Positions 40,110 through 62,146 of a DNA stretch of 62,146 nt are shown one piece after another. The notes beneath the pieces were generated by a model that saw only the letters and a program-made list of their open reading frames with translations, made no database searches and was not told the DNA's origin. Where the stretch lies: positions 1-62,146 of the forward strand of contig JBPCNP010000062.1 in assembly GCA_051001215.1 (NCBI GenBank), written 5' to 3'. A program made the translations under genes and the position numbers. The stretch's first letter is position 1; every line of letters begins with the position of its first letter. The DNA is from Acidimicrobiales bacterium (lineage in GTDB: Bacteria > Actinomycetota > Acidimicrobiia > Acidimicrobiales > AC-14).

Positions 40110-41039
40110 TCAGGCGAGTCCGGGGGCCTTCGGCAGCGACTGCTCGAACTCGGCGACGGGGGCGAACAGGTCGCCGTGTTCGTGCACCCGGGCGAGCACG
40201 GCATCGCCGTCGAAGACCACCGGGTCGGGGTCGCCGGTGGCTGCCACCCGTTCGACCTCGTCCCAGGTGAGGGGCGTGGACACGGTGGGCCGGTCCCGGG
40301 CGCGGAGGGAGTAGACGCACACCGTGGTCTTCACCGCGTCGTTCTGGCTCCAGTCGATGAGGACCTTGCCTTTCCTGAGCTCCTTGGCCATCTGCGAGAC
40401 GACCAGATCGGGGAGCCTGGCCTCGAGCATGCGAGCCAGGGCGTGGGCGAAGGGCTTGGTCTGGTCATAGGTGACGGGTGTGTTGAGGGGGGCGTAGATT
40501 TGCAGCCCCTTCGACCCCGACGTCTTGGCGAAGCTGGCCAGGCCCAGCTGGTCGAGGACCTCGCGCACCGCCAACCCGACCTGGGCGCACTCGACCATGG
40601 ATGCCGGTGCCCCCGGGTCGAGGTCGAACACGACCATGGTGGGGCGGGCCACGTCGTCGGCGCGGGCGAGCGAGGTGTGCAGCTCCAGTGACGCCAGGTT
40701 GGCCACCCACACGAGGGTGGACAGGTCGTTGGCCAGGCAGTAGTTGACGTCGGCCTTGTTGCGCCCGCTCCACACCGCCACCGTGTCGACCCAGGGGGGC
40801 CGGTGCGAAGGGCAGTTCTTCTCGTAGAAGAACTGGCCCCCGACGCCGTTGGGGTAGCGCTTGAGGGTGAGGGCGCGGTTGCGCAGGTGGGTCAGCAGCA
40901 CCGGTGCGATGCGCGAGTAGTAGTCGATGACCTGGCCCTTGGTGAACCCCGTCGCCGGGTAGAGCACCTTGTCGATGTTGGACAGCTTGAGCTGGCGTCC
41001 CTCGACGGTGACCTCGACCGGCGCCGCAGCCGGGCTCAC
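40110..41039 (-). CDS. NHEJ DNA polymerase/primase (stand-alone LigD polymerase domain)
   Basis: LKLSNIDKVLYPATGFTKGQVIDYY, FDLDP, KTSGSKGLQIYAPL and IDWSQN are canonical PolDom motifs. Confidence 0.9.
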   Translation of the reverse strand: MSPAAAPVEVTVEGRQLKLSNIDKVLYPATGFTKGQVIDYYSRIAPVLLTHLRNRALTLKRYPNGVGGQFFYEKNCPSHRPPWVDTVAVWSGRNKADVNYCLANDLSTLVWVANLASLELHTSLARADDVARPTMVVFDLDPGAPASMVECAQVGLAVREVLDQLGLASFAKTSGSKGLQIYAPLNTPVTYDQTKPFAHALARMLEARLPDLVVSQMAKELRKGKVLIDWSQNDAVKTTVCVYSLRARDRPTVSTPLTWDEVERVAATGDPDPVVFDGDAVLARVHEHGDLFAPVAEFEQSLPKAPGLA

Positions 41040-41851
41040 GTGTCGATCTTGTCCTTCTTGTCGCCCTTGGCCGTTTCGCCCTTCACCGCGGCCAGGCTGG
41101 CCTCCAGGGCGGCCATGAGGTCGACCACCTTGGTGGGCTCCTCGGTGGCGTCTTCGACCACGATCTCCTGGCCGGCCGCCTTCTGCTCGATGAGGTCGAG
41201 CACCCGCTGGCGGTACTCGTCGCGGTACTTGTCGGGTTCGAACTCCGACGACAGCGAGTCGATGAGCTGACGGGCCATCTTCTCCTCGCGGGGCGAGACG
41301 TCGACCTCGTCACGGGGCAGGTCGAGCTCGTCGTCGGGTACGACCTCGTCGGCGAACAGCATGGTCTCGAGCACCAGGGCGTCGCCCTTGGGACGGATGG
41401 CGGCCAGGTACTGCTTGGTGCGTAACACGACCCGGGCGATGCCCACCTTGTTGGTCTCGCGCATGGCCTCACGCAGCAGGGCATACGCCTTGGTACCGCC
41501 CTTGTCGGGCACCAGGTAGTAGGGCCGCTCGTAGAAGACGGGATCGATCTGGTCGAGGTCGACGAAGTCCTCGATGTCGATGGTCTTGGTGGCCTTGGGG
41601 TCGAGGGCGTCGAGCTCGTCGGGGGTGATGGTGACGTAGGTGTCGGGGCCCAGCTCGTAGCCCTTCACGATCTGGTCGAAGGGCACCTCCTCACCAGTGG
41701 CGGCCGAGACCCGCTTCTGCTTCACCCGGGCGTTCGACTTGGCGTCGAGCTGATGGAAGCGCACGTCCTTGGACGACACGGCACTGAACAGCTTCACGGG
41801 CACGTTCACCAGCCCGAAGCTGATGGCGCCGCTCCAGATTGGTCGTGGCAC
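41036..41851 (-). CDS. ku: Ku protein (NHEJ DNA end-binding)
   Basis: The start is refined to the GTG at 41851 (VPRPIWSGAISFGLVNVPVKLFSA...). It has a basic Lys-rich C-terminal tail and overlaps the PolDom start by 4 nt. Confidence 0.95.
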   Translation of the reverse strand: MPRPIWSGAISFGLVNVPVKLFSAVSSKDVRFHQLDAKSNARVKQKRVSAATGEEVPFDQIVKGYELGPDTYVTITPDELDALDPKATKTIDIEDFVDLDQIDPVFYERPYYLVPDKGGTKAYALLREAMRETNKVGIARVVLRTKQYLAAIRPKGDALVLETMLFADEVVPDDELDLPRDEVDVSPREEKMARQLIDSLSSEFEPDKYRDEYRQRVLDLIEQKAAGQEIVVEDATEEPTKVVDLMAALEASLAAVKGETAKGDKKDKIDT

Positions 41852-41930
41852 CGGCCACCTCCTTGGCCGACGATGGTAGATGGCCACGGGGCCGAACGGG
41901 TGAAGGAGTGGCGCCCAGTAGCCTGGCCGG

Positions 41931-42308
41931 ATGGCATCCACGGACAAGCCCGACGTCTCCGTTCCCGGCGGTCAGCCGCCGGCCGAGCTCGGTATGGAAG
42001 ATCTCACCATCGGCGACGGGGCCGAGGCCACCGCCGGTTCCCAGGTCGAGGTGCACTACGTGGGGGTCTCCTGGTCGAACGGAAAGCAGTTCGACGCGTC
42101 GTGGGACCGTGGGTCGACCTTCTCGTTCGGCCTCGGCGGCGGCCAGGTGATCTCGGGCTGGGACCGCGGGGTGGCGGGGATGAAGGTGGGTGGCCGGCGC
42201 CGGCTCACCATCCCTCCCGAGCTCGGCTACGGCAGCCGGGGGGCGGGCCGGGCCATCGGGCCGAACGAGACCCTCGTGTTCGTCGTGGACCTCATCGGCG
42301 TGAGCTAG
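41931..42308 (+). CDS. FKBP-type peptidyl-prolyl cis-trans isomerase
   Basis: VEVHYVGVSWSNGKQFDASWDRG.TFSFGLGGGQVISGWDRGVAGMKVGGRRRLTIPPELGYG is the FKBP core. Confidence 0.9.
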   Translation: MASTDKPDVSVPGGQPPAELGMEDLTIGDGAEATAGSQVEVHYVGVSWSNGKQFDASWDRGSTFSFGLGGGQVISGWDRGVAGMKVGGRRRLTIPPELGYGSRGAGRAIGPNETLVFVVDLIGVS

Positions 42309-45789: not shown

Positions 45790-46650
45790 ATGGCGATCAT
45801 CCTGATCGTCGACGGCGACCCGGCGGGGCTCGAGCTGTTGGAGCGCGATATCGGCCGCCGTTACGGCGACGAACACCGGGTGGAGTCGACGACGAGCGGC
45901 GAATCCGCCCTCGCCGCCTGCGCTCGCTTGCGGGACGGTCCGAACCCGGTGGCCCTGGTGCTCGCCGCCGAGCTCCTCCCCGACAGCAACGGCTCGGCGA
46001 TCCTGCTGGGCGCCCGGGCCATGTTCCCCGAAGTCGGGCGGGTGCTGGTCACCAGTCACGCCGATGTCGAGGCGGCGATGGCCGCCATCAACGACACCGG
46101 AATCGACCAGTACCTGGCCAGTCCGTGGCAGTCGCCCGAGGACACGCTGTATCCCGTCATCGACGAGTTGCTGGCCGACTGGCGGGAGCGGATCGCCCTT
46201 CCCTATAGGCGGGTGCGAGACGTGATGCAGGGCACCGACGGCCTGGTTGGCGATGACGCCGACCTGCGCCAGGCGGCGGAGGTCGTCGCCTCGACCCGAA
46301 TCGGCGACCTGATGGTGGTCGACCCCGACGGAGCCTTCGTCGGTGTGCTGTCGGAGGGCGACATCCTGCGCAACGCCCTCCCCGACCTCGACGAGATCCT
46401 GGCTGCGGGCGGCTCGCTCTACGACGCCTACCAGCTCTTCATGGGCAAGGCCCACGCCCTTGCCGACCGACCTATCCTGCCTCTCGTCATCCGCGAGCCC
46501 CTGGTCATGCATCCCGACGATCACGTGGCCAAGGCGGCCACGATCCTGATCGAGCGACAGATCCGGCGGCTCCCTGTCGTCGACGACGGCCGGTTGGTGG
46601 GAACGGTGTCGCGCGCCGACATCTGCCGGGCGGTCGTGAGCACCCCGTGA
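45790..46650 (+). CDS. Pseudo-receiver (REC-like) domain fused to a CBS pair
   Basis: It has a REC fold (MAIILIVDGDP...VALVLAAELLPDSNG...VLVTSHAD...DQYLASPW), but Ala occupies the phospho-acceptor Asp position and Ser the conserved Lys position. The C-terminal half is a tandem CBS pair (VRDVMQG..., GVLSEGDIL, VMHPDDHV..., GTVSRADI). Confidence 0.75.
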   Translation: MAIILIVDGDPAGLELLERDIGRRYGDEHRVESTTSGESALAACARLRDGPNPVALVLAAELLPDSNGSAILLGARAMFPEVGRVLVTSHADVEAAMAAINDTGIDQYLASPWQSPEDTLYPVIDELLADWRERIALPYRRVRDVMQGTDGLVGDDADLRQAAEVVASTRIGDLMVVDPDGAFVGVLSEGDILRNALPDLDEILAAGGSLYDAYQLFMGKAHALADRPILPLVIREPLVMHPDDHVAKAATILIERQIRRLPVVDDGRLVGTVSRADICRAVVSTP

Positions 46651-49600
46651 CCGGGCACGCCGTGACGGCGGCGCCGAGCGGCCCGGTCGTCCCCGCCCGC
46701 CAGGTCCTCGTCGCCGCCGAGGAGACGAACGACCGACTCGGTCACGAGAACCTCGGGTTCCTGTCCGAGTCACACGGCTTCATGCCCCGCCGGCCTCCGT
46801 TGCTCTGCCTTCCGCCCTCGCACCGGGTCTGGGACGACATGGCCGCCCGCCTCCCGGAGATGTTCCGCAGCCTCACCCTCCGGGAATCCCTCGACCGGAT
46901 GCCCGTCCTCGGTGCCGGCCCCGACGACCTGGACGAGCGCTACCTGCTGCGCGCCTCGGCCATCTTCAGCATCTTCGCCCACGCCTACTACTACGTGGAT
47001 CCCGACCCACCGCCGGTGGTGCCCGACTCCGTCCTGCGCCCGTGGGGACAGATCACCGAGCGCCTCCAGCGCCCGGCCCCGCACCTCTCGTTCATCGACC
47101 TGAACGTCTACAACTGGAGGCTGATCGATCCGAGCCGGGCCGATTCGGTCAGGGTCGAGAACCTCGAACTTCTCATCCCGATCCTGGGCAACGAGGACGA
47201 ACGCCGATTCCAGATGGCCACCGTCGAGATCGTGGCCGAGCTCACCCCGATCGTGGCCGCCGCCGTCCGGGCCCAGGAGGCGGTCGTGGCCGGGAGCGTC
47301 GGCGACCTCAGGCGGGAACTGGCCGCCATCATGGGACACCTCGAGCACGTCGGCCTCGAGACCTTCGCCCAGGTCGATCCCAACCCTCGCTCGCACCTGC
47401 ACGTCGATCCGGTGGTCTGGGGCAAGACGGTGGCGCCGTTGGCCACTCCCTACCAGGACGATCCCCCGCCGGGCCCGAGTGGTACCGCCATCCCCGCCTT
47501 CCAGTTGCTCGACTCCCTCTTCGGTCGTCATCGCCACGCCACCAGCATCGGCACCGAGACGGCCCGGGTCCGTGCCTGGTTCCCCCGGCACTGGCAGGAC
47601 TTCCTCGAGGCGTTCGGGGCCATCTCGGTCCCCCGGTACGTCGCGACCAGCGGCGACCGGGCCCTGCGCGGCCTGTTCTCGGAGTGCCGTGAGGCCTACG
47701 CCGGAGACGCCGGCCTGCTGGGGCGACACCGGCTGAAGACCTACGGCTTCCTCGACCTCTCCTTCAAGGCGGGCCGGAGCAAGACGCTGGCCGGGTTCGC
47801 CGGCGGGTTCAACGACCGTCCGTGGGACCGCATGGACACCGAGCTGAGCGCGTCCCGACTGGAGCGCTACCCGGTGACCAACCAGAGCTGCCACCAGGTC
47901 CGCATCGCCCGCGTCAGGGCGTTGCGCTCCGACGAACAGGCATGGGTCGGCGAAGTCACCCTCGACGTGGCGGGGTCCGGAATCCGGTACCGCCCCGGGA
48001 GCAGGTGCGCGGTGCTGCCCGAGAACAGCGACGATCTCGTGGCCCTCACACTGTCGGCCCTTCACGCCCGGGGCGACGAGCCCATCCAGCTGAACGGGCC
48101 GTGGCGAGAGGCGGTCGAGCTGCGCCACGGCTACGAGGACGCCCGGATCCTCGCCCTCCGCACCTTGTTGCGCTTCGGTCGCATCCGTCCGGTGACCCGT
48201 CCGGTGGCCAAGGCGCTGCTCGCCGTGAGCCACGGCGAGAGGCTGCGCCGCATCGTCGAGGCCCGCAGCGAGGAGCAGTGGGAGCTGTGGGAGCTGCTGG
48301 AGATGCTGAGCGGCACGGGTTTCAAAGCGGCCCGGCTCTGGAAGGCCCATGCCGGCGAGCGGGAAGGCATCTGCCGGATCGTCCCACCGGAGTCGTTCCG
48401 GCTGTTCTCCGTGTCCTCGGCGGTGGAGGGCCCACCCGAGGAGGGGGCCCGGGAGCTGAACCTCACCATCGGGCGCATGCGCTACGACACCAGCCCGACC
48501 GAGCTGGCGCCCGCCGGCACGCACGTGGGGACGGCATCGGGGTTCTTGTCCCGCCCAGCGCGCTCCGACTCGGCCTCGCGCCGGGTGTCGGTCAGAGTCG
48601 TACAACCGCCCAACTTCGGGCTCCCCACCGACGTCCGGCGGCCCGTGGTGATGTTCGCCGGAGGTACGGGCGTCTCCCCGTTCATCGGCATGATCCTCGA
48701 GCGGGCCCGCCAGCCGGGCGCCGGGGAGAACTGGCTCTTCCTGGCCGGGCGAACCGCGGCCGACGTGCACCATGGCGAGCTCCTGCGAGCGATGGCGCTC
48801 GAGGGCACGCTCAATTTGCGGATCGCCCTGTCGAGCGACGAGGCGTCGGGCTCGCGGCGCCACATCGGTGACGAGATGCTGGAGGAGGCCAACGCCCGCC
48901 GCTTGTGGCAGTTCCTGCGATCCGAGGGCGACGGTGGTCTGGGCGCGTCGTTCTACGTCTGCGGCCGGACCGGCTTCGCGTCCGCGGTGACCGACGCCAT
49001 CAAGGCCATCCTGGCCCGCTTCGGCGAGGGCTCGACCGAGGAGCGGCGGGCGGCGGCCAACCAGGCTCTGTTCGGGCTCATCGGGGAGAAGCGCTACATG
49101 CAGGAGGTCTTCACGACCTACGCCGGGCCCGAGCGGCCCCCTGAGCGGGGTGACGGGCCCGAGGTGGGGAGCGGGCGCAGCTATGACGCGTCCGAGGTGG
49201 CGGGTCACAACGACGTGGCCGAGGGCCTCTGGATGACTATCGGTGGGCGGGTCTACGACGTCGGTGAGTTCGCCGACATGCACCCCGGGGGACCCAAGAT
49301 CGTCCGCTCCTACGCGGGCATGGACGCCACCGACGCCTATCGCCGCGTGCGCCACGACGTCAACCCCGAAGTCGACGCCCTGCTCCCGATGTACGAGATC
49401 GGGGTCGTCCGGCGTCTCGACTTCGGAGCTGCCTGGGGAACGGCGATCTCGCCCGAAGGGCTCCGCTTCATCACCTTGAAAGACGCCTACCGGGCCTGGA
49501 TCGGGTTGCTGTTCTCGGCGGTGGAGATGGAGAACGCCCTGACCATGGACTACGGCGTCCGCGACGAGCCGGTCACCTACGACGAGAGCCACTCCATCTC

Positions 49601-50138
49601 GGGGTCCCCCTACAAGACCCGTCTCTGCCTGCACACCCACGAGCGCTTCGTCGACCAGTACCTGCCCACGCTCACCGGCGACCGCCTGGGCGACGTCTGG
49701 GCCATGACGAGCGGGCTGGTCTCCGACCGTCACCACGTGCGATGGATGAGCGATCAGATCGGGGCCCTGGAGCACGGCCCCCGGGCCCAGGCCGCGACCG
49801 CCTTCGCCCATGAGATCGCCCGGCGTCTCCGGGCCGCCGCCGGGCGGCCCAGCCCATCGGGTGACGCCTCCCTCCGGTGGTGTGAGAACCGGGCCCGCCT
49901 GCTCGAACGTGAGGATCGGCGGCTCCTCGGCGAGCTGAAGTCGGCCCTCATCGACGGCGTACGGGTCTTCGAGCACTGGGAGGATCGCACGATCAGCCAC
50001 GGCGGCCAGGAGCTGGTGGCCACGGCTCGGGCCCTGCCGGCGTTGATCGACGACTACTGGGGCCGCTGCGCCCTCGTGGGCGAATCGCAGCCACCGGGTG
50101 GATCAGGCATGCCCGGGTGGGAGACACTGGTGCAGTGA
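46647..50138 (+). CDS. Multidomain fusion: IDO-like heme dioxygenase, FAD/NAD(P)H ferredoxin-reductase-type domain, cytochrome b5, and an unknown C-terminal helical domain
   Basis: The GTG at 46647 overlaps the upstream stop (GTGA).
aa ~35-405 (nt ~46749-47861) carry IDO-type motifs.
aa ~415-826 (nt ~47889-49124) carry FRLFSVSS, GTASGFL, PVVMFAGGTGVSPFIGMI, FYVCGRTGFASAV and RYMQEVF.
aa ~845-925 (nt ~49179-49421) form a cytochrome b5 domain with HPGG and a second His 24 residues later.
aa 926-1163 are unassigned. Confidence 0.8.
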   Translation: MTGHAVTAAPSGPVVPARQVLVAAEETNDRLGHENLGFLSESHGFMPRRPPLLCLPPSHRVWDDMAARLPEMFRSLTLRESLDRMPVLGAGPDDLDERYLLRASAIFSIFAHAYYYVDPDPPPVVPDSVLRPWGQITERLQRPAPHLSFIDLNVYNWRLIDPSRADSVRVENLELLIPILGNEDERRFQMATVEIVAELTPIVAAAVRAQEAVVAGSVGDLRRELAAIMGHLEHVGLETFAQVDPNPRSHLHVDPVVWGKTVAPLATPYQDDPPPGPSGTAIPAFQLLDSLFGRHRHATSIGTETARVRAWFPRHWQDFLEAFGAISVPRYVATSGDRALRGLFSECREAYAGDAGLLGRHRLKTYGFLDLSFKAGRSKTLAGFAGGFNDRPWDRMDTELSASRLERYPVTNQSCHQVRIARVRALRSDEQAWVGEVTLDVAGSGIRYRPGSRCAVLPENSDDLVALTLSALHARGDEPIQLNGPWREAVELRHGYEDARILALRTLLRFGRIRPVTRPVAKALLAVSHGERLRRIVEARSEEQWELWELLEMLSGTGFKAARLWKAHAGEREGICRIVPPESFRLFSVSSAVEGPPEEGARELNLTIGRMRYDTSPTELAPAGTHVGTASGFLSRPARSDSASRRVSVRVVQPPNFGLPTDVRRPVVMFAGGTGVSPFIGMILERARQPGAGENWLFLAGRTAADVHHGELLRAMALEGTLNLRIALSSDEASGSRRHIGDEMLEEANARRLWQFLRSEGDGGLGASFYVCGRTGFASAVTDAIKAILARFGEGSTEERRAAANQALFGLIGEKRYMQEVFTTYAGPERPPERGDGPEVGSGRSYDASEVAGHNDVAEGLWMTIGGRVYDVGEFADMHPGGPKIVRSYAGMDATDAYRRVRHDVNPEVDALLPMYEIGVVRRLDFGAAWGTAISPEGLRFITLKDAYRAWIGLLFSAVEMENALTMDYGVRDEPVTYDESHSISGSPYKTRLCLHTHERFVDQYLPTLTGDRLGDVWAMTSGLVSDRHHVRWMSDQIGALEHGPRAQAATAFAHEIARRLRAAAGRPSPSGDASLRWCENRARLLEREDRRLLGELKSALIDGVRVFEHWEDRTISHGGQELVATARALPALIDDYWGRCALVGESQPPGGSGMPGWETLVQ

Positions 50139-50617: not shown

Positions 50618-51700
50618 TCAGGCCAGTTCGTCCGTCCAGCCGACGGTTGCCGGGTCGACGTCGTCGCGCAGTCCCTTGAGGGAGGGCTGGCGGAGGACGC
50701 CGGCCACGGTGACCTCGTTGAACATCACCTCCACCACCACGGTGGGCCTGACGTAGTGCAACGGCGCCCCGGGGGTGTTGGCGAACGGGCTCGTCTCGGC
50801 TGCGAGCTGCCGGAACTGGTCGGACAGCTTCTGGAGGAGGAGATCGCTGAGGCCCGAACCCACCTGGCCGACGTAGCGCAGGGCGAAGGGGTGACCGGGT
50901 GGCGCCGGGGCATCGGGATCGACCCAGCCGACGGCCAGCGAGCCGATCTGACCGGACCGACCGCCTCCCCCCTCGCTCCAGCCACCCACCACGAACTCGC
51001 GCCGGCCGACGCACTTGACCTTGGTCCACGCCTTCGATCGCTTCCCGATGGCGTAGGCGGACGAGGCCACCTTGCCCATGTACCCCTCGAGCCCGACCTT
51101 GCGGCAGGCGGCCACCAGCTCGTCGTCGGCGGCATCGGGCAGCAGCGGCGACGTCTGCCACGACGGCCCCGTCAGGGCCAGCGCCTCGAGCCGGCGTCGA
51201 CGGTCGACGAAGGCCTCGTCGGTGACGAACTGCCCATCGAGCCAGAGCACGTCGAACACCACGTAGAGGGCAGGCACGTCTGCCACCAGGGCCGGAGCGG
51301 GACGGCGCACATGCATGCGGCGCTGCAGGCGCTCGAAGCTGGGCCGGCCCCCCTCGTCGAAGGTGATGATCTCACCGTCGAGCACGACGGCCCGGTCACC
51401 GAGCGCGAAGCCCAGCTCGGCCAGCTCCGGGTAGCCGGCGGTGACATCGTTGCCGAGGCGGCTGGTGATCGACACCCGGCCGTCCCACACCCGGGCGACG
51501 GCGCGCACACCGTCCCACTTGGGCTCGAACAACCAGCCGTCGTGGTTCTCGGGCGGGCCCGTCAGGCCCGTGAGCATCGGCGCCACGACCGGCGGCACCG
51601 GCCCTTCGTAGGCGGCGGCCGGCGCCGCGCCAGCCGCGGGCGCCGGCACCTTCGCCTTGGCCTTGGCCTTCGGGCGCGACCCCTTCCGGACCTTGCTCAT
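50618..51700 (-). CDS. ATP-dependent DNA ligase (stand-alone LigD/LigC-type ligase domain)
   Basis: Adenylation motif I (EPKWDGVR), LDGEI, EGYMGK, and an OB-fold region. The N-terminal tail is Lys/Ala-rich. Confidence 0.9.
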   Translation of the reverse strand: MSKVRKGSRPKAKAKAKVPAPAAGAAPAAAYEGPVPPVVAPMLTGLTGPPENHDGWLFEPKWDGVRAVARVWDGRVSITSRLGNDVTAGYPELAELGFALGDRAVVLDGEIITFDEGGRPSFERLQRRMHVRRPAPALVADVPALYVVFDVLWLDGQFVTDEAFVDRRRRLEALALTGPSWQTSPLLPDAADDELVAACRKVGLEGYMGKVASSAYAIGKRSKAWTKVKCVGRREFVVGGWSEGGGGRSGQIGSLAVGWVDPDAPAPPGHPFALRYVGQVGSGLSDLLLQKLSDQFRQLAAETSPFANTPGAPLHYVRPTVVVEVMFNEVTVAGVLRQPSLKGLRDDVDPATVGWTDELA

Positions 51701-53127: not shown

Positions 53128-54576
53128 TCAAGTCTCCCCCGTCGCCGACCCCTGCTGGGACAGGTGCTCGATCACCTTGGCTGCGGTCGCGCCGGCCTGC
53201 TGTACGCAAGCGGCGATGCCGACACCGCGGAACGAGGCTCCGGCCACGAAGACCCCACCCAGTCCGGACAGTTCGGCCTCGATGCGCGCCACCAGTTGGT
53301 CGTGACCGGGCTCGTACTGTGGGAAGCCGTTGGCCCAGCGGTCGACGCGCCAGGCGGTGGGAGCGTCGGTGGTGCCCACCAGGGTGGCGAGCTCGTCGTG
53401 CAGCCGGCCGACCAGCGCGTCGTCGTCGAGCCGGCCGGCGCGGTCGTCGCCGTCGCGCCCGGCTGAGGCCCGCAGCCGCACCAGGTCGTCGCCGCCGATG
53501 CCGGGCCACTTGGCGGTGGAGAACGTGCACGCCGTCAGCAGCCGGTTCTCGCTCCTGGGCACGAGGAAGCCGCTTCCGGCGGGGAGCGCCGGGAGGTGCT
53601 CACGGCGGTAGGCCAGGGTGGCGGTGACGACCGAGGCGTAGCGGATGCGGCCGAGGAGGTGGGCGGCCTCCGGTGAGGCGGCGGCCACCACCGGGGCGAC
53701 GGCGAACGCCGGTGTGGTGAGGACGACGGCGTCGGCCGTCACGTCGGGGCCGGGCTGGCAGGTGAGCCGCCACCGGCCGTTCTCGGCCGCCAGCCCCGTG
53801 GCCGCCGTGTGCAGGCGCAGATCGCCAGCCTCGAGTGACGCCGCCAGCCGCTCGACCAGGCGCTCCAGGCCACCGGCCACGGACAGGAACACGGGTGAGC
53901 CATCGGCGCCGGCGGCCCGGTTGGCCCGAAGGCCCAGGATCAAGCTGCGATGGCTGGCCGCCGCTGCGGCCAGCTGGGGCGCGGCCGAACGCAGGCTGAG
54001 GGTGTCGGCCCGTCCGGCGTTGATGCCCCCCACCAGTGGCTCCACGAGGCGGTCGAGCATCTGGCGGCCCAGGCGTGACCCGATGACCTCGGCGACCGAC
54101 GGGTCGGGCCCGAGAAGCCGCCGGCGACGGGGGAGGACGACATCGAGGGCGGCCCGAGCCTTGCCGGCGGGTGAGAGCTGGGCGGCCCCGAGCAGCGAGC
54201 GGGCGGTGACGGGCACACCGAGGACGGTGCCCGGCGGGAAGGGTACGAGGCGGCCGCGATGACAGACATAGGCCACGCCCGTCGCCGGGGCGACCAGGTC
54301 GTCGTCCAGGCCGAGCCGGCGGGCCAGGTCGACGGCCCACGGCACGCGGGCGAGGAACGTGTCGGGGCCGGCTTCGACCGCCACGCCACCCAGTTCTTCG
54401 GTGCGGATCTTGCCGCCGAGGCGCCCGCTCGACTCGACCAGGACGACGTCGGCGCCGTCGGGGCCCAGCCCGTCGCGCAGGTACCAGGCGGTGGCCAACC
54501 CGGTGATCCCCCCGCCGACGACGGCGATCCTCGCCCTGGCCCGGGTTGGAGCGGACGCCCCGGGCGGGTCAGGCAC
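53128..54576 (-). CDS. hemY: Protoporphyrinogen / coproporphyrinogen III oxidase (HemY/CgoX family)
   Basis: The start is refined to the in-frame GTG at 54576 (VPDPPGASAPTRARARIAVVGGGITGLATAWYL..., an FAD GxGxxG motif). The further upstream part of track ORF 53128..54879 reads through the repeats and the inverted hemH fragment and is rejected. Confidence 0.85.
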   Translation of the reverse strand: MPDPPGASAPTRARARIAVVGGGITGLATAWYLRDGLGPDGADVVLVESSGRLGGKIRTEELGGVAVEAGPDTFLARVPWAVDLARRLGLDDDLVAPATGVAYVCHRGRLVPFPPGTVLGVPVTARSLLGAAQLSPAGKARAALDVVLPRRRRLLGPDPSVAEVIGSRLGRQMLDRLVEPLVGGINAGRADTLSLRSAAPQLAAAAASHRSLILGLRANRAAGADGSPVFLSVAGGLERLVERLAASLEAGDLRLHTAATGLAAENGRWRLTCQPGPDVTADAVVLTTPAFAVAPVVAAASPEAAHLLGRIRYASVVTATLAYRREHLPALPAGSGFLVPRSENRLLTACTFSTAKWPGIGGDDLVRLRASAGRDGDDRAGRLDDDALVGRLHDELATLVGTTDAPTAWRVDRWANGFPQYEPGHDQLVARIEAELSGLGGVFVAGASFRGVGIAACVQQAGATAAKVIEHLSQQGSATGET

Positions 54577-54610
54577 CCCGGACAGCGGCCGAGGGCGAGC
54601 CGGAACCCCG

Positions 54611-54693
54611 CTCAGGGGGCCGCTCGGGCCCAGCACTCCACTCAGGGGGCCGCTCGGGCCCAGCACTCCGCTCAGGGGGCCGCTCGGGCCCAG
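54611..54693. repeat. Tandem repeat, 2.8 x 30 nt (ctcagggggccgctcgggcccagcactccg). Its right-hand 39 nt (54655-54693) form the left arm of a perfect inverted repeat
   Basis: Read directly in the DNA. 54655-54693 (cgggcccagcactccgctcagggggccgctcgggcccag) is the exact reverse complement of 54890-54928. Confidence 0.95.
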
Positions 54694-54889
54694 GCAGACG
54701 TGCAGGGCGTGGTGGTGTGCGCCTGCGGGTTCGTGTCCGACCACCTGGAGGTCCTGTTCGACCTCGACGTGGAGGCCACCGAGGCCGCCGCCCGGCTCGG
54801 CCTGGCGTTCGCCCGCACCGCCTCGCTCAACGACGACCCCGCCTTCTGCGCCACCCTGGCCGAGGTGGTGCGCTCGCACGCGGCTGCCA
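54694..54889 (+). pseudogene. hemH: Inverted 3' fragment of ferrochelatase, encoded on the opposite strand from the rest of the gene
   Basis: The + strand encodes ADVQGVVVCACGFVSDHLEVLFDLDVEATEAAARLGLAFARTASLNDDPAFCATLAEVVRSHAAA. This is the conserved ferrochelatase C-terminal region (GFVSDHLEVLYDLD motif), while the N-terminal 238 aa are on the - strand at 54929-55642. Confidence 0.85.
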
Positions 54890-54928
54890 CTGGGCCCGAG
54901 CGGCCCCCTGAGCGGAGTGCTGGGCCCG
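54890..54928. repeat. Right arm of the perfect 39-bp inverted repeat (ctgggcccgagcggccccctgagcggagtgctgggcccg)
   Basis: It is the exact reverse complement of 54655-54693, checked base by base. Confidence 0.95.
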
Positions 54929-55642
54929 GTCGTCGAGCACCTCGAGCACGTCGGGGCCCATCCACGGTTCGGACGTGCGCCCCGCGCTCTGCCAGGCCAC
55001 CGACCAGCGGGTCAGGTCGAGTTGGCCGGCCACGGCGGCGGCCGTCTCGGCCAGCTGTGTCGGGTAGGGATCGCCGGACTCGAGGATGCGGGCCGGCAGG
55101 CTGTGGGCGGTGAAGACGACCTCGACCCGCTCGGGGTCGACGTCGCCCAAGCGGGCGCGGGCATCGGTCACCCGGTGGGCGAGGAGGTCGAGGTACCCGG
55201 GCGCCAGATGCCACGACTGGACCATGGTGAGCTCCACCCCGCCGGTGACGACGGCATCGCTGGCCCGGATGCGGGCCGCGTACTCGCCCACCGACAGGGC
55301 CGAGTAGTGGGGGGCCAGGACCAAGCCGATCATCTGGCGTACCCCACCTGCCGCCAGGGCGGCCATGCCGTCCTCGATGAACGGCGGCGCGTGCTTCATG
55401 CCCAGCTCGACATGCCAGCCCTCGCCCAGCACCGCGGCCAGGCCATCGGCCTGGGCCCGAGTCACCTCCAGCAGGGGCGACGTCCCGCCGATGGCGTCGT
55501 AGCGGCGCTGGAGGTCGGCCAACTGTTCGGGCGTCGGCGGCCGTCCCCGCCGCACGTGGGTGTAGTAGGCCTCGACATCGCCGGGCGTGGCCGGTGTGCC
55601 GTAGGCCATGACCAGCACGCCCGTCGGCGGCGTGTCGCTCAA
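54929..55642 (-). pseudogene. hemH: Ferrochelatase / coproporphyrin ferrochelatase, 5' part (disrupted in this orientation)
   Basis: (TTG)SDTPPTGVLVMAYGTPATPGDVEAYYTHVRRGRPP...VVFTAHSLP...PWMGPDVLEVLDD is canonical ferrochelatase. After the repeat the frame runs into antisense sequence. The start overlaps the hemE stop (TTGA). Confidence 0.85.
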
Positions 55643-56673
55643 GCCCGGCGCCAGTCGTGCACCTGGTCGACGACGCGGCGGAGGTTGTCGGGGTCGGTCT
55701 CCGGCAGCACACCGTGACCGAGGTTGAACACGTGGCCGAGACGCCCGCCGTTTCGCTCCAGCACGTCAGCGACGGCTGCGGCCACGGTGGCCGGGGGTGC
55801 CAGGCAGACGGCGGGGTCGAGGTTTCCCTGCACGGCGACGCCCGGAGGCAAGCGGGTGCGGGCCTGGTCGAGGGGCACGCGCCAGTCGACGCCCACCACG
55901 TCGGCACCGGCCTCGGCGAACAGGCCGAGCAGCTCGCCGGTACCCACCCCGAAATGGATGCGGGGGACATCGAGGTCGGCCAGCCCGGCGAAGATGCGAC
56001 GGCTGGCGGGCAGGACGTAGCGGCGGTAGTCGCCGGGTGTCAACGCCCCCGCCCACGAGTCGAACACCTGCACGGCGGCCGCCCCCGCGGCCACCTGGGC
56101 CCGCAACGAGGCCAGGACGATGTCGGCGAGGGCGTCGAGCAGCCGAGCCCACATCGGTGGGTCTGAGTACATGAAGGCCTTGGTGCGGCCTTGGGTCTTC
56201 GACGGTCCCCCCTCGATCAGGTAGCTGGCCAGGGTGAACGGGGCCCCGGCGAAGCCGATGAGGGGCACCTCGCACTCCTTGGCCACCAACCGGATCGTCT
56301 CGAGGACGTGGGCGAGGTCGGTCTCGGGTTCGATGGGGCGGAGACGAGCCAGGTCGTCAGGGGTGCGGAAGGGCTCATCGAGCACCGGGCCGACCCCGTC
56401 GCGCAGGGTGATGCCCACGCCGACGGCCACCAAGGGGACCACGATGTCGGAGAACAGGATGGCGGCATCGACGCCCAGGCGGCGGACGGGCTGGAGGGTG
56501 ACCTCGGCCGCCAACTCGGGATCGCCGACGACCTCGAACATCGTCGCTTTGGCCCGCACCGCCCGGTACTCGGGGAGCGACCGCCCGGCTTGGCGCATGA
56601 ACCACACGGGCACACGCTCGACCGGCCGGCGCCGGCAGGCATCGACAAACGTGCTGGTAGGCGCGGGCGACAT
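55639..56673 (-). CDS. hemE: Uroporphyrinogen decarboxylase
   Basis: The PVWFMRQAGRSLPEYR signature, 344 aa. Confidence 0.95.
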   Translation of the reverse strand: MSPAPTSTFVDACRRRPVERVPVWFMRQAGRSLPEYRAVRAKATMFEVVGDPELAAEVTLQPVRRLGVDAAILFSDIVVPLVAVGVGITLRDGVGPVLDEPFRTPDDLARLRPIEPETDLAHVLETIRLVAKECEVPLIGFAGAPFTLASYLIEGGPSKTQGRTKAFMYSDPPMWARLLDALADIVLASLRAQVAAGAAAVQVFDSWAGALTPGDYRRYVLPASRRIFAGLADLDVPRIHFGVGTGELLGLFAEAGADVVGVDWRVPLDQARTRLPPGVAVQGNLDPAVCLAPPATVAAAVADVLERNGGRLGHVFNLGHGVLPETDPDNLRRVVDQVHDWRRA

Positions 56674-56904
56674 CGCAGATCGACCCTACCCGCGGCCCTC
56701 GCCGTATCCCCAGGCAGGCCCTGTCCTCTCCGCAGATCCGGCGCCGCGTTCTCGGCTCAGAAGGCGGCCAGGCCGTTCGGCGTGCCCAGCCCAGTGGGGC
56801 CGTCGTAGCCGGTACCCGCGGTGCACAGGTAGGGAGCCCGTTTGCGACAGCTGCCGTTGCTGCCCGAGGTCACGTCGAACAGCGATGCTCGGCGGCGTGC
56901 TCAG

Positions 56905-58026
56905 ATGGACGGGGTGAGAGTCCTGACCGTCAACGCCGGATCCAGCAGCCTGAAGCTACGTGTCATCGGCCTCGACGGCGCCGTGGTCGCCACCGCCGAC
57001 CTGCCCCACCAGGCGCGAGGGTCGGTGGACGGCGAGATCTCCCAGTTCCTCACCAAGGTCTCCCCGTTCGACGCCGTCGGTCACCGGGTGGTCCACGGCG
57101 GCCGCGACTTCCAGGCGCCACTGGTCCTCGACGGCCAGGTCGAGGATGCTCTCGGGGCGCTGGCCGACCTGGCGCCCCTGCACAACCCTCCGGCCATCGA
57201 GGCCGTGAAGGTGCTGCGCCGGTTGCGCCCCGAGCTCCCACAGGTCGCCTGTTTCGATACCGCCTTTCACGCCGGACTGCCTGCCGAGGCGGCCACCTAC
57301 GCCCTGCCCCACGAGTGGAACGCTCGGTGGGGCCTGCGGCGCTTCGGTTTTCACGGCCTCAGCCACGCCTACGCCAGCGGGCGGGGAGCAGCGCTCATGG
57401 GTCGGCCGCCCAGCGAGCTGCGCCTGGTCACCGCCCACCTCGGCTCAGGTGCGTCCCTGGCTGCGGTGGCGGGCGGGAGCTCCGTCGACACCACCATGGG
57501 CTTCACACCACTCGAAGGCCTGGTCATGGCCACCCGGGCCGGGGACGTGGACCCGGGCCTGGTGCTCTGGCTGTTGCGTCGTAGCGGGTTGTCGGCCGCC
57601 GAGATCGAGGAAGCTCTCGAGACTGGGTCCGGGCTGCTCGGGATGTCCGGCGTCTCGGCCGACTTGCGTCTCGTCGTCGGTGCGGCCGACGCCGGCGACG
57701 CCCGGGCCGGTTTGGCCTACGCCGTGTACCTCCACCGGCTGCGGGCCGGGGTGGCGGCGATGACGGCGGCCATGGGCGGCGTCGACGGTGTCGTGTTCAC
57801 CGGCGGCGCCGGGGAGAGCTCGTGGCGGCTCCGGCGCGACGCCTGCCGCGGGCTGAGCTTTCTCGGGCTGGCCATCGACGACGACCTCAACGAGGCGGCG
57901 TCGGGTGACCGGACCGTTTCGCCGGCGGGGGCCTCGACGTCGGTCATGGTGGTGGCCGCGCGCGAGGACCTCGAGATCGCCCGTCAGGTACGCGAGGTCC
58001 TCGGACAGGGGTCTCAGGTTGAGTGA
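56905..58026 (+). CDS. ackA: Acetate (propionate) kinase
   Basis: [48 protein letters not shown] and [10 protein letters not shown]. The start is ATG 56905 or GTG 56914. Confidence 0.9.
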
Positions 58027-58036
58027 AGGGAAGGCC

Positions 58037-58305
58037 ATGCCGGCGGTGCTGACCGATGCCGAACTGGACGGGCTCATCGCCTACTGGGAGGCCGCCAACT
58101 ACCTGACGGTCGCCCAGATCTACCTGCAGGACAACGCCTTGGTGCGCGAACCCGTGCGGGCGGAGCACATCAAGCCCCGCCTGCTCGGCCATTGGGGGAG
58201 CTCGAGGACCACTGCCGCACCATGCTGGCTCGCCACCACGGATACATCCGCGAGCACCTCGAGGACATGCCCGAGGTTCGTGAATGGACCTGGTCGCCTG
58301 ACTGA
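58037..58305 (+). pseudogene. xfp: Phosphoketolase remnant (N-terminal ~54 aa joined to C-terminal ~35 aa)
   Basis: [54 protein letters not shown] is the conserved Xfp N-terminus. At ~58197 it joins, in another frame, [35 protein letters not shown], the Xfp C-terminal end. About 700 codons are missing. Confidence 0.7.
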
Positions 58306-58377
58306 GATCGTGACTGCCTCACCGGCGCTCGATCTGGCCGGCGCCGCCCGTCAGCCGGTCGCCGAGGGCTGGTGGGT

Positions 58378-59125
58378 CTGAACACCACCGAGGCCGGCCT
58401 CGAATCCGGCGAGGCCGCCGGGCGGCTGGCCCGCTGGGGCCCGACGACGAACGGGACCTGCATCTCGCGGGCTTCCTCACCTTCGTCGACCGGCCCAAAG
58501 CAGACGCCGGGGAGTCGATCGCCAAGCTCGACCGCTTGGGCGTGGCCGTGAAGGTCATCACCGGCGACAACGGGGTCGTGGCCGCCAAGGTCTGTCGCGA
58601 CATCGACGTCGATGTCAAGGGGGTCCTCAGCGGCGTCGAGGTCGAGGCTCTCGACGACGACGCCCTCGCCACCGCCATCCTTGTCCAGCAGTACGACATC
58701 GGCAGTGCCGCCGGCGCATCGCTGTTTCTTTCGTTCCTGCCCATGCTGCCGTCGCAGATCCTGTTGAACAACCTGCTCTACGACGTCGGTCAGCTCGCCA
58801 TTCCCACCGATCGGGTCGATGCCGAGGTGCTGGCCCGGCCTGCGGTGTGGGTCATCGCCTTCGTCCGCCGCTTCATGAGCGTGTTCGGGCCGGTCAGTTC
58901 GATCTTCGACCTCATGACCTTCTTCGTGATGCTGGCGATCCTCCACGCCGGTCACAGTGAGTTCCGCAGCGGCTGGTTCGTCGAGTCCCTGGCCACCCGG
59001 ACCCTCGTCGTGTTTCTCATCCGCACCCGCCGGGTCCCGTTCTTCCGCAGCCGCCCCAGCCTGGCCATGATGATCACACCCCCAACCTGCGCGCTCGTCG
59101 GCGCCGTCCGGCCGTTCCCCGAGGC
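58378..59125 (+). pseudogene. mgtA: MgtA-type P-type ATPase remnant with at least two internal deletions
   Basis: It reads [22 protein letters not shown] (Cation_ATPase_N-like). At ~58445, in another frame, it continues as ERDLHLAGFLTFVDRPKADAGESIAKLDRLGVAVKVITGDN...ALDDDALATAI. At ~58680 it continues as ...SLFLSFLPMLPSQILLNNLLYDVGQLAIPTDRVD...GPVSSIFDLMTFF...SGWFVESLATRTLVVFLIRTRRVPFF (C-terminal TM helices). The phosphorylation (DKTGT) and most nucleotide-binding regions are absent. Confidence 0.65.
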
Positions 59126-59277
59126 GTCCCGGCCACTGAGGATGAGCGGCACCGGCGCACGATCCACCGACGCGCCGCCCGGTTCATCCATCACCCCTCC
59201 ACGGACGCCGACCCCTTGCCATGAGGTGCGAAAGGCCCCGGACGCCGGTGGCGTTCGGGGTGATTCGCGTGCGGTCG

Positions 59278-59300
59278 CCCGCCCGACCCGGCAGGGCGGG
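59278..59300 (-). terminator. Possible hairpin terminator (cccgccc-N9-gggcggg) 3 nt downstream of the small minus-strand gene
   Basis: A 7-bp G+C stem read in the DNA. No U-tract follows it, so confidence is low. Confidence 0.25.
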
Positions 59301-59303
59301 TCC

Positions 59304-59663
59304 TCAGGCCGCCTGCCTCGGGGTGCTCATCGGGTAGGCCGGCAGCGCGTGCGGCGCAGGCCGGTGGGCGAGCTCGGCCCGCACCTCGTGCTCGGCGATG
59401 GTGATCACGTGACCGTGCTCGTCGAGCATGTCACGGGTGGGGTCGGGCATGGCCGTGCGCCACTCGGTCTGTGACTCTCCCGGCATGGCCCCGGCGAGGG
59501 AGAACGAGGGCCCGTGGCAACCGTGGCCAATGCCGGCGTGGCCGGCGTCGGGGTTCGGGTAGGCGGTCTTCCAGGACATCTCGGCGCCGCCCGGCATGGC
59601 GCCGGCGATCGAGAACACGGGGCTGCAATCTGCTGCGACGGGGGCGACGTGTCGCTGGTCCAT
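59304..59663 (-). CDS. Small protein (119 aa) with an internal duplication and His-rich motifs
   Basis: The ATG at 59663 is in frame in ORF 59304..60053. It has two repeats, SPVFSIAGAMPGGAEMSWKTAYPNPDAGHAGIGHGCHG and GPSFSLAGAMPGESQTEWRTAMPDPTRDMLDEHGH. I recognise no family. Confidence 0.45.
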   Translation of the reverse strand: MDQRHVAPVAADCSPVFSIAGAMPGGAEMSWKTAYPNPDAGHAGIGHGCHGPSFSLAGAMPGESQTEWRTAMPDPTRDMLDEHGHVITIAEHEVRAELAHRPAPHALPAYPMSTPRQAA

Positions 59664-59809
59664 GACATGCCTGCTTTCGTTTCGAGGAGGTTGTTTCTTC
59701 GGTGTCAGTGTGCGCTCACCCCTGTCGTCGCAACAGGGCCGGACGTCCCGAGTCGGTGTGTCGAAAGTCCTCTGGCGGCCTCTCTCCGGCCGGCTGGCAC
59801 GATGGGGGG

Positions 59810-59932
59810 GTGACGACGCGCGTCTTCCTGCTCGACGACCACGAGCTGGTGCGCCGGGGGGTACGCGACCTGCGGACAGAGGCGGCGGCGTACGCGGCGA
59901 CGCTGGCCGAGCGCCGGAGAGCCAATCCGTGA
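59810..59932 (+). pseudogene. NarL/LuxR-type response regulator remnant (in-frame internal deletion, 40 codons left)
   Basis: VTTRVFLLDDHELVRRGVRDL is the start of a REC domain. It is fused at ~59873 to RTEAAAYAATLAERRRANP*, the end of a LuxR-type HTH (..nRtEAaayA..). Its stop overlaps the kinase GTG (GTGA). Confidence 0.6.
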
Positions 59933-61074
59933 GCCCACTGCGGGGCGTCAATGACCCAGAACGGCTGCGGGGCCTTGTCGCCGCCGTGCTGGCCATCGGC
60001 TCGGACCTGTCGCTTCCTTCAGTGCTCCGCCACATCGTGGAGTCGGCCACCACGCTCCTCGACGCCCGCTACGGCGCCCTCGGCGTGCTCGATACGGCCG
60101 GCAAGGGGCTCTCGGAGTTCGTGTACGTGGGCATGAGCCTCGAACAGGTGGCTGCCATCGGGCACCTGCCCGAGGGTCACGGCATCCTCGGGTTGCTCAT
60201 CCTGGAGCCGGAGCCACTGCGCCTGGCCGTGCTCGGCGCCCATCCCGACAGCTTCGGCTTCCCCGCCAACCATCCACCGATGGGGTCGTTCCTGGGTGTC
60301 CCCATCCGGGTGCGCGGCCAGGTGTTCGGCAACCTGTACCTCACCGACAAGCGGGGGGCGGCCGAGTTCTCCGACGAAGACGAGATCCTGGCCGTCGCCC
60401 TGGCCGGGGCGGCGGGGATCGCCATCGAGAACTCCCGCCTGGCCGCCCGGGTGCGAGAGCTCTCTCTCGTCGAGGACCGGGAGCGCATCGCCGCCGACCT
60501 CCACGACACGGTCATTCAGCGACTGTTCGCGACGGGTCTCGGATTGCAGGCCACTGTCCGCACCGTCGACAACCCTGCTGCTGCGGTCCGCCTGCAAGAG
60601 GCGGTTGATGACCTCGACGAGACGATCCGCCAGATCCGTTCGACGATCTTCGCCCTGCAGGGCCCGAGCGTGGCCGGGCGCAGTCTGCGAGACGAGCTCA
60701 TGGCCCTGGTCGCCGAGGCCGCAGGCAGCCTCGGCTTCAAGCCCGGCCTGCACCTCGACGGCCCGATCGACGAGCGCATCAGCGACGCGACCGGCGCTCA
60801 ATTGCTCGCCGTCCTGCGTGAGGCACTGTCGAACGTGGTTCGCCACGCCGGTGCGTCGACGACATCGGTCGCGGTGGAGGTGACCGACACCGACCTCGTC
60901 GTCACCGTCATCGACGATGGCGTCGGCGCCGGTGCCGGGGAGCGACTGGGCGGACAGGGACTGGCCAGCCTGCACCACCGGGCCGAGGCCCTCGGCGGGA
61001 CTCTCGAAGTCGGGGCCGGAACCGATGGGACGGGCACCACCGTGCGCTGGCAGGTGCCCCTCGGAGCTGACTGA
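59929..61074 (+). CDS. GAF-domain sensor histidine kinase (HisKA_3 / NarL-partner type, DevS/DosT-like)
   Basis: The start is refined to the GTG at 59929. It has a GAF region (LRHIVESATTLLDARYGALGVLD...GFPANHPPMGSFLGVPIRVRGQVFGNLYLTDK), an H-box (RIAADLHDTVIQRLF), and HATPase N and G boxes (EALSNVVRHA, DDGVG, GQGLASL). Confidence 0.85.
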   Translation: MSPLRGVNDPERLRGLVAAVLAIGSDLSLPSVLRHIVESATTLLDARYGALGVLDTAGKGLSEFVYVGMSLEQVAAIGHLPEGHGILGLLILEPEPLRLAVLGAHPDSFGFPANHPPMGSFLGVPIRVRGQVFGNLYLTDKRGAAEFSDEDEILAVALAGAAGIAIENSRLAARVRELSLVEDRERIAADLHDTVIQRLFATGLGLQATVRTVDNPAAAVRLQEAVDDLDETIRQIRSTIFALQGPSVAGRSLRDELMALVAEAAGSLGFKPGLHLDGPIDERISDATGAQLLAVLREALSNVVRHAGASTTSVAVEVTDTDLVVTVIDDGVGAGAGERLGGQGLASLHHRAEALGGTLEVGAGTDGTGTTVRWQVPLGAD

Positions 61075-61282
61075 TGAACCCGAGCGGTGGGCGACGACCA
61101 ACGCTCACTCGCGGCCACATGGGTGGTTGGTCATTGCCACCGGAGCCACGTCCGCGGTCACGGCACCTACACGATCCGGGGGGGCGCGATTTCCCGACGT
61201 CGGCGAGTTCCACCGGTCGGTGCACGCGTGGCGGGCATGATGCCCGTTGCGACCGAGCACCCCGACCGGTGGAGGCAACAGC

Positions 61283-62146
61283 ATGGCAGGCCCGTCTTTG
61301 AACATGAACCAGCGCGAGGAGATCTCGCTGGGATTGGCTGACTCGCCGTCAGCGAGCTGGACCGATCTCGCCCGACGAGCCGGGGCACACCGCACGACGG
61401 TGGCCCGGGAGGTCATCCGCAACGGTGGCCGCCAGCACTACCGGCCGGCCGACGCCGAGCGCCGCGCCGAGGCCGAGCGCTGCCGGCCCCGACTCAGCCG
61501 CCTGATGATCGACTCCGTGCTTCGTGCCCGTGTGACCGCCGAGTTGAGGTTGTGCCGCTCGCCTGCTGCCATCGCCGCTGATCTCGTCGCCGAGGGCGCC
61601 GCCCGGGTGTGCCACGAGAGCATCTACCGCTCCGTGTACGCCGGCGAGCTCGACGTGGCCGCCCGTGACTGCCTGCGTCGACGCCGTCCCCGTAGGAGGG
61701 GTCGCCAGGTCCGCCACGCCACCAAACGCCCGGGGCTGCCGAACATCGCTCTGCGTCCGGCGGCGGTGAATGAACGGGGCGAGGGCGGCCACTGGGAGGG
61801 TGACCTCATCATCGGCGCCCACAACCGCTCGGCGGTGCTGACCATGATCGAGCGGGTGAGTCGCTACGCGCTGCTGCTCGACCTGCCCAACGGTTACTGC
61901 GCCGAGGCGGTGGCCGGCGCGTTCGTGGAGGCGTTCGAGTCCATCCCGGCGAACCTGCGGCGCAGCCTCACCCTCGACCAGGGCTCGGAATGGGCGGCCT
62001 GGCCGTCCCTGGCCGCCAGCTACGGCCTCGACGTGTGGTTCTGCGACCCTCACTCGCCCTGGCAGCGGGGGGCGATCGAGAACCTCAACGGCCACGTGCG
62101 CTTCTGGCTGCCCCGGGGCCGGCGCCTCGACATCGTCAGCCCCGAC
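61283..62146 (+). mobile_element. IS30-family transposase gene; its 3' end runs off the right edge of the window
   Basis: My own translation gives MAGPSLNMNQREEISLGLADSPSASWTDLARRAGAHRTTVAREVIRNGG (N-terminal HTH), then ...HWEGDLIIG...LTLDQGSEWA...FCDPHSPWQRGAIENLNGHVRFWLPRG (DDE region). It is not in the ORF track because no stop falls inside the window. The element ends were not identified. Confidence 0.85.

Follow-up and report, generated by a model that had tools for sequence, protein, structure and literature searches.

An inverted segment within the ferrochelatase gene of an Acidimicrobiales bacterium, bounded by perfect repeats of a coding minisatellite

Introduction

Inversions that lie inside a gene have been described as intragenic invertons, which are enzyme-mediated (Chanin et al., bioRxiv 10.1101/2023.03.11.532203). 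In the thiC inverton of B. thetaiotaomicron, the flipped state introduces a premature stop and gives a null, auxotroph-like phenotype; both orientations were demonstrated by reads and by PCR, and the inverted repeat is 11 nucleotides (nt) long (10.1101/2023.03.11.532203). Another process, template switching between the arms of an inverted repeat, homogenises the arms and inverts spacers reversibly in coding genes, and the documented spacer inversions have spacers of 2–5 bp and arms of 10–16 bp (Abraham and Hazkani-Covo 2021, PMC8604942). Here, we analyse a 62,146-nt stretch of DNA (62 kb, hereafter the window) from an uncultured Acidimicrobiales bacterium, in which the C-terminal coding part of the ferrochelatase gene, hemH (cpfC), lies inverted between perfect 39-bp inverted repeats.

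Two further systems are needed to place this locus. The first is the CpfC/HemH family of ferrochelatases (PF00762), represented by the B. subtilis (1AK1) and Listeria (6SV3) enzymes. The second comprises the mycobacterial interspersed minisatellites (MIRUs), which have a unit of roughly 40–100 nt and to which the repeat that makes up the arms can be likened. The window was also compared with four relatives: L084 (JGI Ga0167622_1000123), L082, L083 and L002 (DATAQC010000020.1), the last of which is an Acidimicrobiales metagenome-assembled genome.

Results

The hemH gene of the window is divided over two strands (Table 1). Its first 238 codons, beginning with a TTG at 55642 that overlaps the hemE stop, are encoded on the minus strand, and the conserved C-terminal piece (GVVVCACGFVSDHLEVLFDLDVE...SHAAA) is encoded on the plus strand, where it reads ADVQGVVVCACGFVSDHLEVLFDLDVE...VVRSHAAA. 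This piece is bounded by two arms that are exact reverse complements (39/39) with a spacer of 196 nt, as found by a repeat search and a computed check. On the minus strand the right arm reads RAQHSAQGAARAQ, which corresponds to hemH codons 239–251, and the two junctions spell GACGAC-arm-TGGCAGCC and GGCCGCT-arm-GCAGACGTG. When arms up to 2 kb apart are considered, the pair is the longest exact inverted repeat of the entire window. Beyond the hemH locus the next longest is 15 nt, and in 30 first-order Markov simulations the longest reached 17 nt, so that the pair exceeds what chance would give.

In the orientation present, the minus-strand open reading frame (ORF; 54827–55642) encodes 271 amino acids (aa), comprising ferrochelatase sequence to codon 238, 13 repeat-coded residues and a 20-aa nonsense tail. 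Because the premature stop sits 250 nt upstream of the hemY start, the stop-start overlap of hemH with hemY is lost. When the segment is inverted in silico, the reading frame is kept and a 357-aa protein results, which ends at the TGA at 54569–54571 within GTGCCTGA; only in this restored orientation does that TGA terminate hemH. The overlap so regained is conserved in all four relatives. The first-pass annotation had proposed the perfect repeats, the placement of the gene on two strands, the in-frame restoration and the coupling of hemH to hemY, and each of these held when the arms were computed, the pieces translated and the inversion repeated.

The restored protein matches Pfam PF00762 over profile positions 2–316 of 317 (247 bits), while the present 271-aa ORF matches positions 2–255 (188 bits). 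As coverage of the profile is complete only after inversion, the locus derives from a true ferrochelatase and the present allele is truncated; no one reading frame of the allele as assembled gives a full-length match. In a PDB search, restored residues 7–311 align to residues 6–305 of the B. subtilis ferrochelatase 1AK1 (E = 2e-68). The His motif FTAHSLP (AHSLP with H183 in B. subtilis) lies on the minus-strand part, and the DHLE Glu, which by count on the 1AK1 alignment is E264, lies on the inverted plus-strand piece. Both residues have catalytic roles that we take to be established, and they are joined in one polypeptide only after inversion. The present allele thus lacks roughly one quarter of the fold together with the DHLE Glu, in agreement with the earlier proposal that hemH is disabled in this orientation. 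The operon context is that expected of a heme gene, with hemE upstream and hemY/cgoX downstream, and the same order is found in L002, L082, L083 and L084. Once restored, the gene (cpfC/hemH) is an ordinary ferrochelatase of the coproporphyrin type, and it belongs to a hemE-hemH-hemY operon.

Two other readings of the locus were considered and rejected. A split but functional enzyme can be dismissed, as the inverted piece sits in a long plus-strand ORF antisense to hemY with no signal of a separate gene, and the N-terminal product has no DHLE helix. A structured RNA or tRNA can be dismissed as well, by the absence of any Rfam or ARAGORN match across the whole window (0 of each) and by folding of the 30-nt unit that is no better than that of shuffled sequences (z about −1.2 to −1.5).

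The comparison with relatives bears on which arrangement came first. A scan of one genome per species returned 80 loci, the best of which was that of L002, whose hemH matches all 357 restored residues at 85%. A protein search returned 7,485 homologues at E ≤ 1e-60; among the best 120, coverage of the restored query is 83% or more, the one exception being the 271-aa product of the window itself (70%). In these best 120 of 7,485 homologues, and in the four relatives, hemH is one contiguous gene. The 90%-identity cluster of the window product has one further member, P0121, which is the intact 327-aa ferrochelatase of L084. In BLASTN comparisons with the window, all four relatives gave the same pattern: collinear, inverted (about 54680–54926), and collinear again. 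The inverted segment aligned in reverse orientation only (4/4), and nucleotide identity of the flanks was about 95% for L084 and 87–88% for L082, L083 and L002.

The window is therefore the sole flipped genome of the five compared. Because all four relatives carry the un-flipped, intact gene, the restored hemH is to be read as the ancestral state. The first-pass annotation had allowed that relatives might share the present arrangement with a differently organised hemH; this proved not to be so, as all four have a contiguous, un-flipped gene. In addition, a conserved 29-mer that directly precedes the arm was used to scan metagenomes, and this returned only a distant, intact hemH without the repeats.

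Both arms are made of units of a 30-nt repeat, GGGCCCGAGCGGCCCCCTGAGCGGRGTKCY. The left arm is part of a tandem array (30 nt × 2.9 at 54608–54693) whose three units encode the tail of the restored gene, GPERPPERSA GPERPPEWSA GPERPPERGS. The internal copy encodes AQHSAQGAARAQ and falls in a region without equivalent residues in B. subtilis HemH, which shows up in the alignment as an insertion. At the hemH 3′ end, each of the five genomes carries one unit or more, as GPERPPERGS just ahead of the conserved hemY stop-start overlap. Here, the number of units is 1 in L084, L083 and L082, 2 in L002 and 3 in the window. Internal copies in the opposite orientation number 0 in L084 and L083, about 0.5 in L082, 2 in L002 and 1.3 in the window. 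L002 has an equivalent inverted pair, which is 91% identical over 46 nt and is not flipped, whereas the window arms are 100% identical. Since the internal arm is absent in L084 (as it is in L083), partial in L082 and imperfect in L002, the inverted repeat is young and is not conserved as a recombination site.

The repeat is not confined to hemH. The 30-nt family occupies four loci in the window, and its core 17-mer has two dispersed copies, at 34424–34440 and 49125–49141, which bears out the earlier suggestion that the arms come from a dispersed repeat family. The copy at 49125, GPERPPERGDGPE, encodes GPERPPERGD. Compared with L084, which is ~95% identical, the gene there has gained exactly 30 nt with the frame kept, so the repeat spreads into coding sequence on a very short evolutionary timescale. 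With several loci, and with 1–3 units in the 3′ array and 0–2 units at the internal site across the five genomes, it has the properties of an interspersed minisatellite. By this pattern it is best described as a young, fast-changing coding minisatellite that spreads within genes, and not as a conserved recombination site.

When the peptide GPERPPER was searched for in a 5.8-billion-sequence collection, the only other protein found was P0122, and the peptide is thus not a widespread protein motif. P0122 (JGI, 107 aa, from a 2448-nt contig) carries a GPERPPERDS × 3.5 tail behind a hydrophobic N-terminal stretch that is probably membrane-spanning. The window also contains a 27-nt tandem array (× 5.3, 98% matches, 15702–15843, plus strand), which encodes AGPSGPQDS and sits in the N-terminal extension of the MFS_3 transporter ORF 15399–17099. 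Its unit is about 75% like the 30-nt hemH unit, with a 3-nt indel, and the two may belong to a related repeat family.

These observations are consistent with the following series of events. The 30-nt in-frame unit was ancestrally single at the hemH 3′ end (GPERPPERGS) and later expanded to three copies. A unit also arose ~200 bp upstream, inside hemH and in the opposite orientation, so that two opposed copies formed the perfect 39-bp inverted repeat around codons 252–316. The 196-bp spacer would then have been flipped by homology-driven exchange between the arms, through RecA-type recombination or replication template switching, and not by a dedicated invertase. This flip would take the DHLE active-site helix out of frame, truncate the product at 271 aa and break the stop-start overlap with hemY. 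As the arms are still perfect, the segment could flip back by the same process; at best, this would make the locus an unprogrammed, low-frequency reversible polymorphism and not a regulated switch. We favour this explanation, in which the inversion is real, recent and driven by homology and leaves a null allele with the potential to flip back, and give it an even chance of being correct. The anatomy of the locus, its ancestral state, the dynamics of the repeat and the absence of decay are observed directly; the presence of the flip in cells, and not in the assembly alone, and the route of recombination are what we infer. With a 196-bp spacer and 39-bp arms, RecA-type recombination is no less plausible a route than template switching. 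As a separate observation, positions 40110–41947 (minus) and 50618–51700 (minus) contain genes for a LigD primase-polymerase, for Ku and for a separate ATP-dependent DNA ligase, and the organism thus encodes non-homologous end joining.

The age of the flip was gauged from codon changes specific to the window when compared with the four relatives. The flipped piece has three such changes in 64 aligned codons, one of them nonsynonymous, and the N-terminal part has 11 in 238, five of them nonsynonymous. The rates are equal in the two parts with no relaxed constraint visible, and the flipped piece contains 0 stops and 0 frameshifts. This absence of decay means that the inversion is much younger than the split from L084, or reversible, or not real. 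All three changes in the flipped piece (codons 254, 255 and 315; 54694–54705 and 54883–54885) lie within ~12 nt of an arm boundary. This clustering may be chance (n = 3) or the trace of an event that made or homogenised the arms.

The same data bear on whether hemH has become a fixed pseudogene, that is, whether a real and practically irreversible inversion marks the start of pathway loss, with heme scavenged or made by a second ferrochelatase. A strain-specific deletion in a nearby P-type ATPase gene (described below) and an insertion sequence (IS) transposase at the contig end both fit a degree of gene erosion. However, hemE and hemY are intact, the flipped piece evolves without relaxed constraint, and no second ferrochelatase was found in the 62 kb, where 43 ORFs were scanned with Pfam. 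We consider a fixed pseudogene improbable, and it is a sub-case of the favoured inversion rather than a separate mechanism.

The Pfam scan also addresses control by a dedicated enzyme. No serine or tyrosine invertase is present among the 43 ORFs, where the scan gave just one recombination-type enzyme, the rve transposase (61241–62146), and an HNH/DUF222 protein; the first-pass annotation had likewise noted that no recombinase gene is adjacent. It had gone on to propose that the locus behaves as an ON/OFF switch, and this part is not upheld: one orientation is seen in one assembly, no invertase was found among the 43 ORFs scanned in the 62 kb, none of the four relatives is flipped and the arms belong to a coding minisatellite. 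In its strict form such a switch would be programmed phase variation, in which a recombinase encoded elsewhere flips an intragenic inverton to turn heme synthesis off and on. The anatomy, with intragenic inverted repeats and a flip that leads to a premature stop, is like that of B. thetaiotaomicron thiC, and with its two halves perfectly preserved the gene fits the idea of a reversible element. Against this, the only recombination-type enzyme is the rve protein at the contig end, the internal site of the minisatellite-derived arms is empty in L084 and imperfect in L002, none of the four relatives is flipped (0/4), and the contig is unbroken at the locus, which suggests one dominant orientation. 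With no invertase among the scanned ORFs and arms that are unconserved among relatives, programmed phase variation is the least supported explanation and we judge it very unlikely.

A looser form of the idea is a recombinase-independent intragenic inverton, by which the population would toggle ferrochelatase ON and OFF through homology-driven flipping and would contain heme-auxotrophic and heme-prototrophic subpopulations. We regard this as unlikely.

The remaining alternative is that hemH is intact in the organism, and that the 196-bp segment was mis-oriented by the assembler or derives from chimeric inverted library fragments. Assembly graphs are classically ambiguous about which way round a segment lies when perfect inverted repeats enclose it. 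An exact-protein look-up with hemE returned one Logan contig (L001, SRR33880236, k=31), which is 100% identical to window positions 54899–61228 and ends 30 nt into the right arm. Because a de Bruijn graph with k=31, below 39, must stop in the arm, this contig cannot traverse it and is silent on orientation. The 271-aa product is on record nowhere else, the flipped junctions appear in no independent assembly found, and for the window's strain the restored sequence is not on record either, as a protein or as a contig. In addition, the gene is essential, both of its halves are perfectly preserved and it is intact in every relative.

Evidence that weighs against an artefact comes from the way in which the contig was assembled. 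It passes exact direct repeats of 76, 58, 57, 53 and 40 nt uninterrupted, which suggests that the assembler resolved repeats of more than 39 nt. The k-mers or reads used would then have exceeded 39 nt, and since contigs built in this manner include only junctions that occur in reads, the window junctions are probably read-supported. The ends of the contig show behaviour at repeats that is normal for a short-read assembly, with a 3′ break in a transposase gene and a 5′ end beside ~500 nt of tandem repeats. Taken together, an assembly or library artefact is a serious possibility and the main rival, though less probable than the favoured inversion. The favoured inversion and this artefact were both named as alternatives in the first-pass annotation, and they are now the two leading explanations.

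Some details of the contig may be added here. The longest exact direct repeats (76 and 58 nt) lie in a 180-nt tandem repeat (× 2.1, 98% identity, 39518–39901) inside an NHL-repeat protein (ORF 38595–40028, minus), and they provide a gauge of the resolving power of the assembler. The ORF of the rve (integrase core) transposase is on the plus strand and runs off the contig end; the Logan contig stops before it, at 61228, and an IS element probably ends both assemblies at the 3′ side. At the other end, positions 33–532 comprise ~500 nt of overlapping, GGTGG-rich tandem repeats with periods of 18, 24, 36, 42 and 54 nt, and this block is probably the reason for the 5′ end of the contig.

Further support for a real flip, of a weaker kind, came from a second rearrangement 3.5 kb away. 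In a P-type cation ATPase gene on the minus strand, ~1.3 kb of L084 (2197–3493) is missing in the window at ~58436–58444. The deletion junction lies between two 9-nt direct repeats, TCGGGCCCC, and only the Cation_ATPase_C part of the gene is left. As the deletion is also found in the independent Logan contig, it is real and strain-specific, and so the same strain has undergone a real rearrangement at short repeats.

Several points count against a real inversion. An aerobe with genes for heme proteins normally cannot do without ferrochelatase, and such proteins are encoded in the window (a P450 and an IDO-cytochrome b5 fusion), so a dominant hemH null allele would be surprising. Zero decay and perfect identity of the arms are also expected from an assembly error, the flip is seen in one assembly only, and read support for its junctions is deduced from the behaviour of the contig elsewhere. 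For template switching in particular, the spacer inversions that have been documented span a few bases and not 196 bp (PMC8604942).

Table 1. Features of the hemH locus and copies of the 30-nt repeat in the window
Feature	Position	Strand	Basis
hemY/cgoX, FAD-dependent coproporphyrinogen/protoporphyrinogen oxidase family, intact	53128–54576	−	Pfam Amino_oxidase 3e-50, NAD_binding_8
GTGCCTGA: hemY GTG start (54576–54574) overlapping TGA (54571–54569)	54569–54576	−	Translation; overlap conserved in 4/4 relatives
Tandem array of three 30-nt units	54600–54693
Inverted-repeat left arm, final 1.3 units of the array that lies at the 3′ end of ancestral hemH	54655–54693
Inverted segment, hemH codons 252–316 and first base of codon 317	54694–54889	+	Translation; reverse-only alignment of 4/4 relatives
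Premature hemH stop in the present orientation	54827–54829	−	Translation
Inverted-repeat right arm, 1.3 units of the 30-nt repeat	54890–54928		39/39 complementary to 54655–54693
hemH/cpfC codons 1–238, N-terminal two thirds, including FTAHSLP His motif	54929–55642	−	ORF list; Pfam PF00762 profile positions 2–255; PDB alignment
hemE, uroporphyrinogen decarboxylase, intact	55639–56673	−	Pfam URO-D 6e-127
Repeat copy, 1.3 units, GPERPPERGDGPE	49125–49164	+	Inside ORF 46647–50138, IDO / FAD-NAD reductase / cytochrome b5 fusion gene
Single repeat copy, 3 mismatches	34416–34445	−	5′ end of lnt ORF (32940–34466, minus), overlapping long P450 ORF (34337–35803)

Discussion

If the flip is real, it would represent a case, in Actinomycetota, of a core enzyme of the heme pathway being silenced by an intragenic inversion. 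It would mean that a fast-evolving coding minisatellite can build its own invertible segment without a dedicated recombinase, and it would provide a route to heritable, reversible loss of function, possibly with heme cross-feeding in soil communities. If the flip is an artefact, the locus serves as a warning that, in metagenome-assembled genomes, short, perfect inverted repeats within an essential gene can make it look like a pseudogene. In either case, a 30-nt in-frame repeat expands, contracts and enters other genes between ~95%-identical genomes.

In its restored form the protein resembles known CpfC/HemH enzymes, as it matches the family end to end and has the hemE-hemH-hemY context that is typical of the coproporphyrin-dependent pathway. 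It differs from the B. subtilis enzyme 1AK1 in a repeat-coded insertion of 9 aa before the beta strand GVVVCACGF, and in a repeat-coded tail of roughly 40 aa. A further difference is that the gene here, in the sequence as given, is split over two strands.

The repeat itself is like the MIRUs in being a GC-rich tandem unit that is present at several loci and varies in copy number among close relatives. A further likeness is the position of the array at a gene junction in an operon, where it keeps the frame open up to a stop that overlaps the start of the following gene. Here, however, the unit is 30 nt long, and copies are found within coding sequence in either orientation. The resemblance is functional only, and no sequence similarity is claimed.

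With respect to mechanism, the locus has several properties of Ripley-type template switching, namely perfect arms, a spacer whose sequence is exactly reverse-complementary to the ancestral one, and a position in a coding gene. Such a process needs no dedicated enzyme, and a second event reverses the first. The difference is one of scale, as the spacer here is 196 bp and the arms are 39 bp, well outside the very short spacers of that class.

Finally, the closest parallel in anatomy and outcome is the thiC inverton. In both, inverted repeats surround a segment that lies wholly inside a biosynthetic gene (here 39/39 and 196 nt apart), the arrangement is in principle reversible, and the non-reference orientation gives a premature stop. 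The hemH locus differs in that one orientation is seen, no invertase is encoded by the 43 ORFs scanned, and the arms are 39 nt of coding-minisatellite units rather than 11 nt. It may function as invertons do, yet it cannot be classed among them. Host and target are different too, being an uncultured Acidimicrobiales bacterium and heme synthesis, respectively.

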